Part shown: piece after piece, positions 2,913 through 14,957 of the stretch | Layout: each line of letters begins with the position of its first letter | Numbering within the stretch: the first letter of the stretch is position 1 | UHGV virus genome: UHGV-0127207 | Strand: one strand, 5' to 3' | DNA: 24,457 nucleotides | Source of the DNA: a virus | Program-made: the position numbers and the translations under genes | Notes under the pieces: model-generated | Database searches by the model: none | Seen by the model: only the letters and a program-made list of their open reading frames with translations | What the model was told of the DNA's origin: nothing

Positions 2913-3487
2913 ACCGGGCCTCCGGTTGTGTCGCCGCCTTTCAGGACGTCAGTATGCTGATGCGCATCAACCACGATCCCGTTAGAACTCATCGCTCCGC
3001 CGCCCTGGGTAACGCCACCATTGATCACCACTTCGCTGTTAATGCGCGTGCGGTCAGCCTCCAGTACAAACTCACTGGTTTTCATGGTGATGTTGTCAGC
3101 GGCCTCAATGACCATTGATTTGATGCCCCTGACATACCAGCGCCCGGTAGTGGGTTCGTATTCAAACCAGCCGCCGTCAGGATGTTCTGTCACGCAGGCG
3201 TCTGCCGACGTCGACGGTGGTGCGAACTGATTCGAATAGACAGCGGGCAGCGCAAAGGCAGTTTCCAGATTGCCGCCCAGACTCAGCAGCACCACCTGCT
3301 CACCTTCCGATGGTCGCCACCATGTGCGGGCATTCCCGGCACGCAGCGTCAGCCAGCTGATCCAGTTGGTTTCAAGCTCGCCCGTTTTCACCCGGCAAAG
3401 CCAGTTTTCCCGGTCCACTTCGGTGACTACACCAGTGCGGATCAGGTTGGTGATAAGGCGCATGATTTCGGTTAGTTGTGCGTTCAT
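2909..3487 (-). CDS. V: Baseplate spike/assembly protein gpV
   Basis: ORF 2909..3595; ATG at 3487 (MNAQLTEIMRLITNLIRTGVVTEVDRENWLCRV...) chosen as start; P2 gpV-like; first gene of the V-W-J-I-H operon. Confidence 0.85.
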   Translation of the reverse strand: MNAQLTEIMRLITNLIRTGVVTEVDRENWLCRVKTGELETNWISWLTLRAGNARTWWRPSEGEQVVLLSLGGNLETAFALPAVYSNQFAPPSTSADACVTEHPDGGWFEYEPTTGRWYVRGIKSMVIEAADNITMKTSEFVLEADRTRINSEVVINGGVTQGGGAMSSNGIVVDAHQHTDVLKGGDTTGGPV

Positions 3488-3582
3488 AGGGTTAGGTTGC
3501 ACGGACCTTGAATCTATGGCATCAATACGTCCTTGTGTGGTAAATGACACAAATACAATTCCAATCAAAGAAAGGTAAAAGA

Positions 3583-4113
3583 ATGAGCCATCCAATTGAT
3601 TATTACGCTATAGAAGAACACGCAAGAATAATTGAGCAATTATGCTGTTCATCTGAATTTTATTTACAGCGTATATATTCCACACAGAAAGTATATGATG
3701 GTTCTATAGTAACTGAATTTGAAATGGAGGAGTTATCGTACAACGGATGGTTGGAATATACCATTAGCAACAATCTTATTAGCCTTTGTACAAAACTACG
3801 AATTCTCCAAGACACTAGTGAACATGAGTGGAACCCAGATTACTCACCTGAGAAAGAAGCATTTGAAGAACATGAAAATATACTTTTTGTTATAGATGGT
3901 CATGTTAAAGATTCTATACGCGAATGCTGCAATAAAATTATTCACGCATTAAGTTTTGAGTTAACAAAAAAGACCGGCAAAAATGGAATAAAATATTGGG
4001 ACGGTTCTATTATTGCTTCTGGGGTTCAAAACAAAAAAAACTGGAAAATTAAAATAGACCTTTTCCCTTTTTGCCAAAGCATAAAAAGTTATTTAAGTTT
4101 ATTAAGAGCGTAA
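3583..4113 (+). CDS. Hypothetical protein of unknown function (moron inserted between tail genes S and V, opposite strand)
   Basis: ORF 3544..4113; ATG at 3583 preceded by AAAGG with 7 nt spacer; visibly A+T-rich; opposite orientation to all flanking structural genes; no motif I can recognise. Confidence 0.6.
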   Translation: MSHPIDYYAIEEHARIIEQLCCSSEFYLQRIYSTQKVYDGSIVTEFEMEELSYNGWLEYTISNNLISLCTKLRILQDTSEHEWNPDYSPEKEAFEEHENILFVIDGHVKDSIRECCNKIIHALSFELTKKTGKNGIKYWDGSIIASGVQNKKNWKIKIDLFPFCQSIKSYLSLLRA

Positions 4114-9098: not shown

Positions 9099-9932
9099 TC
9101 AGCAATTGGTCAGAGTGTCAGCGGGGGCGTTACCGCCTGTTGCACGCTGGCGGTAGTCCTGGCGGCTGTCTTCATGACTCAGCTTGTCCACCAGTTCGTT
9201 AAAGGCGGTCTGCTGTGCCTGCAGGGCAGTCTCCAGCTCAGACAGACGTTCTTCCTGCTCAGACAGGGATTTTTCGGTGTGTGCGCTCAGGTTCTGCTGC
9301 TCAGTGGCGACCAGCTCCACGGCCTTATGCACATCAGAGAACCGGGCGTCATCGGACTGCTCTTTTTTGGTAAACAGCGCCGTGACGCGGGCAAACAGGG
9401 ACGGTTTGTCGTCCTGGATTTCTTCCAGTTCGATCACCGTTTCCTCTGCAGCGGTAAAGAGATTGGCAGGATTCTGCTTGCGGTTTGCCAGCGGGTTATG
9501 GGCTGCACTGGCGCTGAATGTCAGCATTTCCGTACCCAGACTGGCAGGGTCATCAGTGGCAGCCAGGCCGACCAGGTAGGCTTTGCCCGTATCAGCGAAC
9601 TTCGGGCTGACTTCCATAGATGTGAATAATTTCTGGCCTTTTTTCACCAGTTCCACCAGGGACTCCGTTGGCTCAACGTCGGCATACAGCGCCATCTTGC
9701 CTGCCAGCGGACCTTCCGTGATTTCTTCAGCAAACAGCGCCGTCACCTTGCCGTAGCGGTTAAAGGTGCTGTCCGGCAGATAAGACTTGATGTGCTCAAG
9801 GTTAATCAGCGCGGTATACACCGCCGGGTTGTAGCTGGCTGCCATCTGTTCCAGCCATTCACGCTGGATTTCGCGTCCATCGGTGGTGGCACCTTCCACC
9901 CCGATGCGAAAACGCTTTGCTTTCACTGTCAT
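9099..9932 (-). CDS. O: Capsid scaffolding protein gpO
   Basis: 277 aa (MTVKAKRFRIGVEGATTDGREIQREWLEQMAASYNPAVYTALINLEHI...TLTNC), P2 gpO-like; divergent from P. Confidence 0.9.
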   Translation of the reverse strand: MTVKAKRFRIGVEGATTDGREIQREWLEQMAASYNPAVYTALINLEHIKSYLPDSTFNRYGKVTALFAEEITEGPLAGKMALYADVEPTESLVELVKKGQKLFTSMEVSPKFADTGKAYLVGLAATDDPASLGTEMLTFSASAAHNPLANRKQNPANLFTAAEETVIELEEIQDDKPSLFARVTALFTKKEQSDDARFSDVHKAVELVATEQQNLSAHTEKSLSEQEERLSELETALQAQQTAFNELVDKLSHEDSRQDYRQRATGGNAPADTLTNC

Positions 9933-10010
9933 GAGCCGTGCTCCGTTAGAAAAAACTTACTGGAGCCTTATGGTTGCGGTGATGGGGGCAGTGAAACAAT
10001 GCGCAGTATT

Positions 10011-10028
10011 TGTACCGACAACCACACA
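10011..10028. promoter_or_regulatory. Candidate late-activator (Ogr/B/Delta-type) binding dyad TGT-N12-ACA in the divergent O/P promoter region
   Basis: TGTACCGACAACCACACA in the 142-bp gap between the O and P starts; about 87 bp upstream of the O start codon, so more likely serving the O promoter. Confidence 0.4.
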
Positions 10029-10074
10029 AACCGCAGGCGGGGAAAGCCTTCATTCAAGGCTGTAGGTTTGTGCC

Positions 10075-11841
10075 ATGAACACCACACTGACACCCGCAGA
10101 TCTCGATCCCCGTCGGCAGGCCATGCTGCTGTACTTTCAGGGATACCGCGTCGCCCGCATTGCTGAAATGCTGGGCGAGAAAGTTGCAACCGTTCACAGC
10201 TGGAAAAAACGCGACAAGTGGGGTGACTATGGGCCGCTGGATCAGATGCAGCTCACCACCGCCGCACGCTACTGCCAGCTCATTATGAAGGAGCACAAAG
10301 AAGGGAAAGATTTCAAAGAGATTGACCTGCTGGCGCGCCAGTCTGAGCGCCACGCGCGGATCGGCAAGTTTAACAATGGCGGTAACGAAGCCGACTTAAA
10401 CCCTAACGTCGCCAACCGCAACAAAGGCCCGCGCCGTCAGCCGGAAAAGAACGTTTTCACCGATGAACAAATTGAGAAGCTGGAAGAAATCTTCCACTCC
10501 TCCATGTTCAACTACCAGCGCCACTGGTGGGAAGCCGGAAAAACCAACCGCATCCGCAACCTGCTGAAGTCACGCCAGATCGGCGCGACCTTTTACTTTG
10601 CCCGTGAAGCCCTGATTGACGCCCTGCTGACCGGACGTAACCAGATTTTCCTTTCCGCCAGTAAGGCACAGGCCCACGTCTTTAAGCAGTACATCATCGA
10701 CTTCGCCAAAGAAGTGGAGGTGGAGCTGAAAGGCGATCCGATGGTGCTTCCTAACGGGGCCACGCTTTACTTCCTCGGCACCAATGCCCGCACAGCCCAG
10801 AGTTATCACGGTAACCTGTATCTGGATGAATATTTCTGGATACCGAAATTCCAGGAGCTGCGCAAAGTGGCTTCCGGTATGGCTATTCACAAAAAATGGC
10901 GACAAACCTATTTTTCCACGCCATCCAGCCTGACCCACAGTGCTTATCCGTTCTGGTCCGGTGCGCTGTTCAACCGTGGACGCAACAAAGCCGACAAGGT
11001 GGACATCGACCTGTCCCACAGCAATCTGGCCCCCGGCCTGCTGTGCGCAGACGGGCAGTACCGCCAGATAGTCACTGTGGAAGATGCGGTGCGCGGCGGC
11101 TGCAACTTGTTCGACCTCGACCAGTTACGCATGGAATACAGCCCGGATGAATACCAGAACCTGCTGATGTGTGAGTTCGTGGACGATCTCGCGTCCGTGT
11201 TCCCGCTCAGCGAGCTGCAGGGGTGCATGGTGGACAGCTGGGAAGTCTGGACCGACTTTCATGCACTGGCGCTGCGCCCGTTTGGCTGGCGCGAAGTGTG
11301 GATCGGTTATGACCCGGCAAAAGGTACGCAAAACGGCGACAGCGCCGGGTGCGTGGTGGTGGCACCGCCAGCCGTGCCGGGCGGTAAGTTCCGCATTCTT
11401 GAGCGTCACCAGTGGCGCGGAATGGACTTCCGCGCCCAGGCTGACGCCATCAAAAAACTGACCGAACAGTACAACGTGACCTACATCGGCATCGACTCAA
11501 CCGGCGTCGGTCACGGGGTTTACGAGAACGTGAAAGCGTTCTTTCCTGCCGTCCGGGAGTTTGTCTATAACCCCAACGTTAAAAACGCCCTGGTACTCAA
11601 GGCCTACGACATTATCAGCCACCGCCGTCTGGAGTTTGACGCCGGGCACACCGACATTGCGCAGTCATTTATGGCAATCCGTCGCGCCACCACCGCCAGC
11701 GGCAACCGCCCGACCTATGAAGCCAGCCGCAGCGAAGAAGCCAGCCATGCCGATCTGGCCTGGGCAACAATGCACGCACTGTTTAACGAACCGCTGCAGG
11801 GCGAGTCCGCCAATACCAGCAATATTGTGGAGATTTTTTGA
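10075..11841 (+). CDS. P: Terminase large (ATPase) subunit gpP
   Basis: 588 aa (MNTTLTPADLDPRRQAMLLYFQGYRVARIAEMLGEKVATVHSWKKRDKWGDYG...), P2 gpP-like; followed by and overlapping Q. Confidence 0.9.
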   Translation: MNTTLTPADLDPRRQAMLLYFQGYRVARIAEMLGEKVATVHSWKKRDKWGDYGPLDQMQLTTAARYCQLIMKEHKEGKDFKEIDLLARQSERHARIGKFNNGGNEADLNPNVANRNKGPRRQPEKNVFTDEQIEKLEEIFHSSMFNYQRHWWEAGKTNRIRNLLKSRQIGATFYFAREALIDALLTGRNQIFLSASKAQAHVFKQYIIDFAKEVEVELKGDPMVLPNGATLYFLGTNARTAQSYHGNLYLDEYFWIPKFQELRKVASGMAIHKKWRQTYFSTPSSLTHSAYPFWSGALFNRGRNKADKVDIDLSHSNLAPGLLCADGQYRQIVTVEDAVRGGCNLFDLDQLRMEYSPDEYQNLLMCEFVDDLASVFPLSELQGCMVDSWEVWTDFHALALRPFGWREVWIGYDPAKGTQNGDSAGCVVVAPPAVPGGKFRILERHQWRGMDFRAQADAIKKLTEQYNVTYIGIDSTGVGHGVYENVKAFFPAVREFVYNPNVKNALVLKAYDIISHRRLEFDAGHTDIAQSFMAIRRATTASGNRPTYEASRSEEASHADLAWATMHALFNEPLQGESANTSNIVEIF

Positions 11842-12961: not shown

Positions 12962-12982
12962 AAAACGCTCCTAAGAGCGTTT
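12962..12982. terminator. Candidate bidirectional hairpin terminator between convergent Q and the accessory operon
   Basis: AAACGCTC-CTAA-GAGCGTTT inverted repeat with T-rich stretches on both strands; the stop codon of the 239-aa gene lies in the loop. Confidence 0.35.
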
Positions 12983-13690
12983 CTGTTTACGGTTTGACTC
13001 TATTTGTTTTTTTAGCTGGATAAGCCTTTCAACTAACTCAAACACTTTTGTACTTGGATTATCAGTATCGCTAGCTTCAGCAGCCTGTAAACTTCTCTTA
13101 GCCCTAAGGACTACTTCATTTAAATCTTTTGACTCTAAAGCGTTTAGGGTTTTCTGAAAAATCCCTTTTGAGCCTTTCTCATAGTCCTTAATATATTTTC
13201 TTAACTCATTTACAATTTGATTTCCTGAACTATTACCAGGTAAATTTCTAAATGCCTTTGTCGAATAGGTATAATGTAGAAGTAACCAATATTCAAAACA
13301 AGGTACTGAATTCACAGTAAACCAAGTTGAGCTTGGTTTACTTCTCCTGATAGCGTCAAGCGCTGCCATGTAATCAGAGTGGGCATCCTTATCAATCACT
13401 ACAAAGATTTGATCATAAGGAGCCCCCTGTTCAGTCATTTTTTTATGCTGTGCTTTTGCATGACGAACAACACACATAGGACTAGAGCCACATTCTCCAG
13501 TTACATCAATTACACTTGCTGTAAGTAATTCAAAATGATTTATCAAATCCTCAAAGTAATTTGGTTCAGTTTTTTTACCCTCACAAACAATTAATATTTT
13601 AGCGAGAGGGGATTTTATTGCATTACGTCTTGCTAGATCCTTAGCCGTTTTAGGGGCACGTTTCTTTTTGAATAAATCCTCGCTTCCCAT
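12971..13690 (-). CDS. TOPRIM-like protein (RloB/AbiLii-type or DUF4435/AriB-type), second gene of a candidate anti-phage pair
   Basis: 239 aa; N-terminal ILIVCEGKKTEPNYF and downstream VVIDKDAHSD consistent with a TOPRIM E...DxD core; A+T-rich; starts 1 nt after the upstream ATPase gene stops. Confidence 0.6.
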   Translation of the reverse strand: MGSEDLFKKKRAPKTAKDLARRNAIKSPLAKILIVCEGKKTEPNYFEDLINHFELLTASVIDVTGECGSSPMCVVRHAKAQHKKMTEQGAPYDQIFVVIDKDAHSDYMAALDAIRRSKPSSTWFTVNSVPCFEYWLLLHYTYSTKAFRNLPGNSSGNQIVNELRKYIKDYEKGSKGIFQKTLNALESKDLNEVVLRAKRSLQAAEASDTDNPSTKVFELVERLIQLKKQIESNRKQKRS

Positions 13691-13691
13691 A

Positions 13692-14957
13692 TCAAATCCC
13701 CGTCAATTTCTTGATGAACGGCAATGCTCCATACCGACCGTCTAGGTATGCGGCTTCTAAATTTTCTCTTCCTTTCCTTGGACTAAAATCAGTCAATGGA
13801 TATAGATTAGTTTCACTGAGTTCATTTTTCTCACAAAACCAAACTTGATCACGTCTAAAAATGCTTTGATTCAGAATGGATGTTTCATGTGTTGAGAAAA
13901 TTAACTGCGCACCTTTTTTATTAGTAACCGGACTATTAAAAAGATTTACCAAGAAACTAACCAACTTTGGATGCAATGTATCGTGAAGCTCGTCGATTAA
14001 TAGTACATATCCATTATCGAGCGCATCTAACCATGGACCAGCTAAAGAAAAAAGCTTTTGAGTGCCATGAGATTCCTCTTCAAGAGAAAAACTTACCGGC
14101 TCACCTTTATCGTTATAATGGACAGTAGTAACATCAAAAACTTCTTTATCCTTCATATTAGAAATAACGATTTTTTTGATATCATCTGGCATATCAGATG
14201 GCAAATCATCTGGATTAAATTTTTCTTTCTTAACTAAAACATCATCAATGCCAATATCTGCAGCTTGCAAAAAATTCAAGATATCTTTCTTCATATCCTC
14301 GGTGCAGCGTTTAGCGGAGAATGTATTAGCCCATCCATTAATTCCAGAAAGTCTCAGTGTTTTTTTAAACCAAGTAAAAACAGGCTTAAGCTGCTCGCTA
14401 TTTAATTGAACAGCTGTAGACAAGAACAGGGCATTATTTCTAGTTGAACGCTGCCAAACTTGTTTTTCACCAAGTAGTGATGCGCCAAAATCCCAATCAT
14501 ATTCCTGCTTCTCTTCATCCCAAGCTCTGAAATACCACTTTTGAGGCCTTCCTTTTGGGTACGCAAAGAGCCATTCATCAATAATTCTTTCATTTGTAGC
14601 AGAAAAACCAAATTGATACCGGGTGCCCTCTGCAATAAAAGTAACTTCAAATTCAGTAGGTTTTTTAATTGAATCTGAATCAAGCTTGAAGGGGAATACG
14701 GGAACCTCTTCACCAGCCTGAGAGTTAGATGCAGAGTGGATAACTAAATCCATCATAGCCCTGACAGCCAGAAGTACATTCGACTTGCCCGCTGCATTCG
14801 CACCGTAAATAACAGCTGACTTTAGAACATTAAGGTTAACGTTTCCCTCTACTGTAAAGATATTCTCTTTTAACTCGTTACTTTTGTTAGCAATAAGTGA
14901 AAGTGTTTGTTTGTTTTTGATTGAGAGATAGTTCTCAACATTGAATTCAATAAGCAT
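13692..14957 (-). CDS. ABC/SMC-like P-loop ATPase (AAA_15/AAA_21-type), first gene of a candidate anti-phage pair
   Basis: 421 aa; Walker A GANAAGKSN, Walker B VLLIDELHD, H-loop-like FSTHET; strong RBS AGGAGGG before the ATG; A+T-rich. Confidence 0.7.
   Translation of the reverse strand: MLIEFNVENYLSIKNKQTLSLIANKSNELKENIFTVEGNVNLNVLKSAVIYGANAAGKSNVLLAVRAMMDLVIHSASNSQAGEEVPVFPFKLDSDSIKKPTEFEVTFIAEGTRYQFGFSATNERIIDEWLFAYPKGRPQKWYFRAWDEEKQEYDWDFGASLLGEKQVWQRSTRNNALFLSTAVQLNSEQLKPVFTWFKKTLRLSGINGWANTFSAKRCTEDMKKDILNFLQAADIGIDDVLVKKEKFNPDDLPSDMPDDIKKIVISNMKDKEVFDVTTVHYNDKGEPVSFSLEEESHGTQKLFSLAGPWLDALDNGYVLLIDELHDTLHPKLVSFLVNLFNSPVTNKKGAQLIFSTHETSILNQSIFRRDQVWFCEKNELSETNLYPLTDFSPRKGRENLEAAYLDGRYGALPFIKKLTGI

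Follow-up and report, generated by a model that had tools for sequence, protein, structure and literature searches.

One predicted Ogr/B-type activator site for two back-to-back late promoters, and a putative leaderless terminase mRNA, in a Fels-2-like phage

Two divergent late operons and one palindrome

In the phage DNA examined here (a 24,457-nucleotide stretch of the viral genome UHGV-0127207, hereafter the window), two late operons diverge from a short gap between the scaffold gene O and the terminase gene P, and this gap holds a single clear palindrome. The question is whether one such element could serve the promoters on both of its sides and, if so, where the two transcripts would begin. 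The preliminary description had taken the gap for the divergent late-promoter region of a P2-family phage, and this holds; Pfam matches confirm the identities of the flanking genes. Measured between start codons, from the O ATG (A at 9932, minus strand) to the P ATG (A at 10075, plus strand), the gap is exactly 142 bp. The features that frame the question are:

9933–10074 (no strand): O–P intergenic region, from start codon to start codon, with two predicted back-to-back late promoters
10011–10028 (no strand): predicted Ogr/B-type late-activator site common to both promoters, so assigned from its sequence, its conservation and the equivalent position in P2 and 186
9099–9932 (minus strand): gene O, capsid scaffold/protease, heading the leftward late operon (Pfam Phage_GPO, E = 4.6e-113)
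10075–11841 (plus strand): gene P, terminase large subunit, heading the rightward late operon (Pfam Terminase_5, Terminase_6N and Terminase_6C)

The palindrome, TGTACCGACAACCACACA, can be read directly at 10011–10028, exactly where it had been placed, as a perfect TGT-N12-ACA dyad centred at 10019.5. The claim that it fits the recognition pattern of the Ogr, B and delta proteins also holds: TGT-N12-ACA is the consensus of Ogr/B/Pag/delta-dependent late promoters as quoted in PMC3931495, and the position of the dyad is that of the activator sites annotated in the P2 and 186 records. From the sequence, we regard this one dyad as almost certainly an Ogr/B-type activator site and consider it likely that it serves back-to-back promoters on both sides, with an O transcript starting near 9964 and a leaderless P–Q transcript.

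The motif by itself is no proof, since its frequency is not above chance: the window contains three TGT-N12-ACA matches, against 6.8 ± 2.7 expected from shuffled sequences, and it is position and conservation that carry the case. Two of the three matches fall in the two late-promoter gaps, one in each, where their centres are 55.5 bp from the ATG of P (10075) and that of V (3487), respectively. The third, TGTGCCATGAACACCACA at 10069–10086, overlaps the P start codon; it was rejected as an activator site, being mismatched or absent in most relatives, and is likely a chance by-product of a conserved stretch, TGTGCC-ATG-AAC-ACn-ACA. Neither the comparison of loci nor a family profile anchored on the dyad (see below) revealed a second conserved dyad in the 142-bp gap. 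A promoter scan of 9800–10250 found no sigma-70 consensus promoter, which fits activator dependence.

Other candidate elements of the gap were set aside. An ACA-N12-TGT arrangement at 9996–10013 was weighed as a possible second site, but its motif differs, and the V promoters, P2 and 186 do not have it. An RNA element was rejected on the basis of there being no Rfam match and a fold z-score of −1.1, which is not significant. A perfect 8-nt inverted repeat, CACAAACC / GGTTTGTG (10025–10032 and 10065–10072), links the right arm of the dyad with the P −10 region and is probably incidental, because it is not conserved in the family profile. Other inverted repeats were likewise discarded, none of them being conserved in this profile.

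Register of the two promoter cores

The records of characterized relatives give one site to both promoters. In P2 (NC_001895), a single activator site at 3057–3087 is annotated for the pO and pP promoters, and the mapped starts are at 3016 for the P operon and 3127 for the O operon. With its centre at 3071.5, the P2 dyad (TGG-N12-ACA) lies 55.5 bp from each mapped start. In 186 (NC_001317), one B-protein site at 3798–3817 is annotated for activation of pV and p12, and in the Stenotrophomonas P2-like phage Smp131, PP′ and PO′ are assigned to the same 18 bp (PMC3931495). Given one shared site in P2 and 186, a second dyad for P is not expected. The earlier remark that P lacks a clean dyad of its own is thus right in that none is conserved, but this is not a gap in the evidence: the single palindrome would serve both directions. 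Both the proposed sharing of the site and the 55.5-bp spacing are carried over from the annotation of these homologous phages.

Alignment with the late promoters of P2 and 186, which had been proposed as a check, puts the window's PP and PO in register with theirs and places the activator site at the dyad. In the window, PP runs ACA, 34 nt, TAGGTT, 6 nt and the A of the ATG; in P2 PP and 186 p12, the order is ACA, 34 nt, TAGCCT, 6 nt and the start, which in P2 is mapped. The P2 pO/pP region resembles that of the window in its orthologous O and P flanks, in the single palindrome between them, in −10 hexamers lying 43.5 bp from the centre on both sides, and in a P-side TAnnnT with 6 nt to the start. 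It differs in its imperfect dyad (TGG-N12-ACA, against a perfect one in the window), in its wider O–P gap (173 versus 142 bp) and in its P mRNA, which has a 23-nt leader with GAGG, whereas in the window the ATG stands at the predicted start. The −35-like element TTGTTT that is conserved on the window's O side is missing from both P2 and 186. Like the window, 186 has one annotated site for two divergent late promoters, and the two are also alike in the type of their immunity/regulatory module, the window's lineage carrying CI/Apl/CII. The 186 dyad, however, is TGT-N12-CCA on one strand, in place of the perfect window dyad, and orf12, the P homologue of 186, begins ∼22 nt beyond the annotated p12 promoter and is thus leadered, unlike what is predicted for P in the window.

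On the O side, the promoter core and the leader are composed of the following:

9994–9999 (minus strand): O-promoter −35-like hexamer TTGTTT, at ∼2 bits per position over 38 clusters and at a fixed distance from the dyad; its function is putative
9971–9976 (minus strand): O-promoter −10-like hexamer CAACCA, 43.5–48.5 bp from the dyad centre
9961–9967 (minus strand): predicted O transcript start zone, by analogy with P2; the point 55.5 bp from the centre is 9964
9941–9944 (minus strand): Shine–Dalgarno GGAG of gene O, read in the sequence, 8 nt before the ATG in a predicted leader of ∼32 nt

TTGTTT and CAACCA are separated by 17 bp. CAACCA is a weak −10 hexamer, and it occupies the same register as GAAACT in P2 PO and 186 pV and as CAACCT in the V promoter of the window. 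Because the O strand has a T at 9964, transcription may begin at an adjacent purine instead. The duplex energy of the O GGAG with the anti-Shine–Dalgarno (anti-SD) sequence is −5.8 kcal/mol.

Conservation was assessed with 80 loci carrying P homologues (69–100% identity), taken from species-representative genomes, of which 79 were usable; the P and O starts were placed by tblastn and the dyad distances then measured. Of these 79 related loci, 65 have a perfect dyad whose centre lies exactly 55.5 bp upstream of the P ATG; with Fels-2 and the window, where it lies at the same distance, the number is 67 of the 82 loci examined. The N12 spacer differs widely between loci (for example ACCGACAACCAC, GCCTTTCGCCAT and GCCGGAAATGGC), while the half-sites are invariant. 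In a dyad-anchored profile weighted over 38 clusters at 90% identity, the half-sites TTGT/ACAA reach ∼2 bits per position and the variable spacer holds little information. The P flank of this profile shows G-TAnnnT at 42.5–48.5 bp from the centre, then 6 nt, then C-ATG; the O flank shows TTGTTTC at 20.5–26.5 bp and CAACCAtAaG at 43.5–52.5 bp, within a conserved block that extends to ∼57 bp. Conserved hexamers thus stand 43.5–48.5 bp from the dyad on either flank.

The distance from the dyad to the O ATG, in contrast to that to the P ATG, ranges from 81.5 to 110.5 bp across loci. In a MAFFT alignment of 61 unique segments, almost all O-side indels lie at 64–70 and 83–84 bp from the centre, and the flank is essentially indel-free to ∼64 bp, the exceptions being gap columns at 30.5 and 39.5 bp, in ∼3% of the sequences each. 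Since the indels are confined to the predicted leader, only the length of the O leader would vary and the O core keeps a fixed register. With fixed register on both flanks, both promoter cores are locked to one dyad at equal distances. The initial view that the spacing suits the O promoter therefore needs qualifying: the dyad does lie ∼55 bp upstream of a plausible O start, but the rigid spacing to an ATG is to that of P, not O.

The −35-like element is part of a longer block, GAAACAA at 9993–9999 (TTGTTTC on the O strand), that is conserved like the dyad half-sites in the 38 clusters. A single step of 15 bp separates it from the left half-site, so that the sequence reads ACA-N12-TGT-N12-ACA; the P2, 186 and V promoters have no such block. 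The block, which holds the ACA half of the 9996–10013 arrangement, is probably the O promoter's −35 element; it may also be a third contact for the activator, or a contact for another factor.

That the dyad might serve the O promoter only, with P using an unrecognized and degenerate activator site of its own, is suggested by its suitable distance from a plausible O start and by the presence of a conserved TTGTTT on the O side alone. We consider this improbable, because it is the P ATG that keeps an invariant spacing (55.5 bp in 67 loci), the P-side TAnnnT is in the register of the P2 PP hexamer, whose start is mapped, P2 and 186 annotate a single shared site, and no other conserved dyad exists in the 142 bp. 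The converse, a dyad for P only and an O promoter that is conventional and TTGTTT-based or dependent on another factor, would agree with the rigid coupling to P and with the O side having its own −35-like hexamer and 17-bp spacer. It is very improbable, as the O core is also register-locked to the dyad (the ∼64 bp that are essentially indel-free in 61 unique sequences) and aligns with P2 PO and 186 pV, annotated as dependent on the shared site; furthermore, CAACCA is too poor to act unaided and no consensus promoter was detected. We give hardly any credence to a chance match, or to a site for some unrelated regulator, for example a CRP-like protein or the prophage repressor. The motif count, being no higher than chance, would allow it, but the position of the dyad, the conservation of its half-sites while the spacer drifts and the recurrence of the same geometry at V all speak against it. 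Also, CRP sites are spaced shorter (TGTGA-N6-TCACA), and the immunity region is 12 kb away.

The 5′ end of the P mRNA and the V promoter

The P transcript is predicted to begin at the P start codon itself. The relevant features are:

10063–10068 (plus strand): P-promoter −10 hexamer TAGGTT, 43.5 bp from the dyad centre, in the register of TAGCCT in P2 PP and 186 p12
10075–10077 (plus strand): P start codon and predicted transcription start of a leaderless mRNA, 55.5 bp from the centre and 6 nt after the hexamer

Translation of P begins with ATG in all 82 loci. In the window, 10075 is the sole in-frame P start after the upstream stop, and the Terminase_5 domain starts at residue 11. Met17 was rejected as an alternative start, since it has no ribosome-binding site and its use would truncate this domain. 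Along with the position of TAnnnT given below, these observations speak for 10075 as the genuine start codon.

The P mRNA is, in our judgement, probably leaderless, its 5′ end being predicted from geometry: relative to the hexamer, the ATG is at the position of the mapped P2 PP start, and the geometry is that of P2 gene V, which like lambda cI exemplifies leaderless mRNAs. The hexamer itself is well conserved, with TAnnnT at −12 to −7 from the P ATG in 51 of 59 unique upstream sequences (a count that omits P2, which is leadered) and at −13 to −8 in the remainder, with the exception of the also leadered locus L068. Conservation falls on the initial TA and the last T, and the central bases vary (TATGTT, TAATCT, TATTTT, TAGTCT). 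Such a pattern is the signature of a −10 element, as in a ribosome-binding site the centre would have to supply the G-rich Shine–Dalgarno core.

The main competitor is a leadered P mRNA that starts further upstream, with the TAGGTT region acting as a weak ribosome-binding site. In the window, AGGT (10064–10067) lies inside TAGGTT, 7 nt from the ATG, and its anti-SD pairing energy of −5.6 kcal/mol is about as good as that of the O site, so that a leadered P mRNA from an unrecognized upstream start is possible for this sequence only. In addition, leaderless genes are rare in enterobacteria (PMC4633059). We nevertheless regard a leadered P mRNA as possible but rather unlikely. Relatives with TATGTT, TAATCT or TATTTT have no AGGT-type anti-SD pairing, and the median anti-SD energy across the family is −3.2 kcal/mol for P versus −5.8 kcal/mol for O. 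The conservation of the hexamer is that of a −10 element, while the would-be Shine–Dalgarno core varies in relatives, and there is no conserved alternative −10 upstream in register with the dyad. Moreover, where a leader is present, as in P2, 186 and L068, it follows the same hexamer, and that of P2 (23 nt) has a clear GAGG.

The geometry proposed for the leaderless P mRNA recurs at the second late-promoter gap of the window:

3534–3551 (no strand): second late-activator dyad, TGTGTGGTAAATGACACA, for the V (baseplate) operon, a perfect TGT-N12-ACA with its centre at 3542.5
3494–3499 (minus strand): V-promoter −10 hexamer CAACCT, 43.5–48.5 bp from the centre and 6 nt before the V ATG

The centre of this dyad is 55.5 bp from the V ATG (3487, minus strand). 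The P2 record gives the first base of the V coding sequence as the transcription start of the V operon, and PMC4633059 cites P2 as one of the few sources from which leaderless genes have been studied in E. coli. P2 V, which has no ribosome-binding site, is like V and P of the window in having a dyad ∼55 bp upstream of the ATG and a −10-like hexamer 6 nt before it; the transcription start is annotated for P2 V and only predicted for P in the window. The P promoter of the window's lineage is a copy of the V-promoter geometry.

This geometry was followed in 80 viral contigs whose V protein is at least 96% identical to that of the window, from a search that gave close relatives only. Upstream of V, these contigs show 21 unique sequences, and insertions of different genes make several of the 21 quite dissimilar to one another. 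All 21 have a perfect dyad 54.5–56.5 bp from the ATG, and by eye most show an nAnnnT-type hexamer at −12 to −7. The V dyad geometry is also found in Fels-2, where three of seven TGT-N12-ACA matches sit at the F, V and O/P promoter positions.

One of the insertions upstream of V is that of the window itself, an ORF of 176 aa (3583–4113, plus strand) placed between the tail genes S and V but read from the other strand; it gave no Pfam or PADLOC match. The S–V gap in Fels-2 is only ∼68 bp, and similar sequence upstream of V is seen in many relatives; others have unrelated DNA there.

For the Fels-2/Wadgaonvirus-like branch as a whole, we lean towards a leaderless P–Q mRNA whose AUG lies 55.5 bp from the palindrome that would also drive the leadered O operon. 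If true, then together with V, two late operons of the phage would start with leaderless cistrons. The literature searched contained nothing relevant on a leaderless P2-family terminase or on start-site maps of Fels-2. Leaderless mRNAs are poorly translated in enterobacteria, so the arrangement, if the leaderless reading is correct, may set a low terminase dosage.

The first codons of both P (ATGAACACCACACTGACA, 10075–10095) and V (ATGAACGCACAACTAACC, 3467–3487) are C- and A-rich, and among relatives the nucleotide pattern ATGAAnACnACAC is kept in these codons even with different amino acids. CA-rich sequence downstream of the start can boost leaderless translation in E. coli.

The most distant P homologues (∼70% identity; from Pectobacterium, Rahnella, Brenneria and Sodalis) are those of loci L064, L066, L068 and L072–L083. 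The dyads of these loci are mostly imperfect and shifted to ∼57.5 bp, that of L072 being perfect. Their hexamer is mostly TAGCCT, 7 nt before the ATG, with TAACTT and TAACGT at 6 nt in L080 and L081, respectively. L068 (Proteus myxofaciens) retains a P2-like leader. Such loci may be intermediate forms, linking leadered and leaderless promoters.

The activator and neighbouring genes

By analogy with its relatives, the protein binding the dyad is most likely the lineage's own Ogr/B-type four-cysteine (C4) zinc-finger protein. A tblastn search gave no hit to an Ogr/B-type activator gene within the window, which ends inside the tail-fibre genes. The window, a P2-family prophage, is collinear with the Salmonella phage Fels-2, so the activator gene should lie beyond the left end of the window; the O–P region is collinear with P2 as well. 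C4 Ogr/B homologues are encoded in Fels-2 (139–357) and in Escherichia phage 500465-1, the latter protein being 78% identical to that of Fels-2 and 56% to P2 Ogr. The window itself is ∼96% identical to 500465-1 over most of the shared late and replication genes and 81% over Q, and its P protein is 97% identical to that of Fels-2 and 63% to P2 gpP.

In the mechanism that we propose, the activator bound at 10011–10028 would recruit RNA polymerase to both flanks from the midpoint between them. In P2, the activator acts through contact with the C-terminal domain of the RNA polymerase alpha subunit. Leftward transcription would start near 9964 and yield an O-N-M-L-lysis-R-S mRNA with a leader of ∼32 nt and GGAG. 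Rightward transcription would start at the A at 10075, or no more than a base or two away from it, yielding a leaderless P–Q mRNA.

The O/P promoter region is an ordinary member of the known P2/186 class of shared late promoters. The new point, the predicted leaderless terminase mRNA, is a modest one and leaves the understanding of P2 late control unchanged. The analysis does give a prophage family that is very common in enterobacteria its correct regulatory annotation, and it explains why a single dyad lies between O and P. Among 5426 complete E. coli genomes, 1268 have a match to the Fels-2-like family, and in 1035 of these the match spans most of the O-P-Q query. It also offers a natural comparison, the same activator-dependent promoter being leadered in P2 and 186 (∼22–23 nt), and also in L068, versus predicted leaderless in the Fels-2-like lineage. 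Such a pair could be used for studying leaderless translation and bidirectional activation in E. coli.

Downstream of P lies the portal gene Q, just beyond which are two cargo genes (12971–14957, minus strand). These encode an AAA_21 ATPase (AbiLi, E = 1e-100) and a RloB-family protein (AbiLii, E = 2e-29), and the pair looks like an AbiL-like anti-phage defence system.
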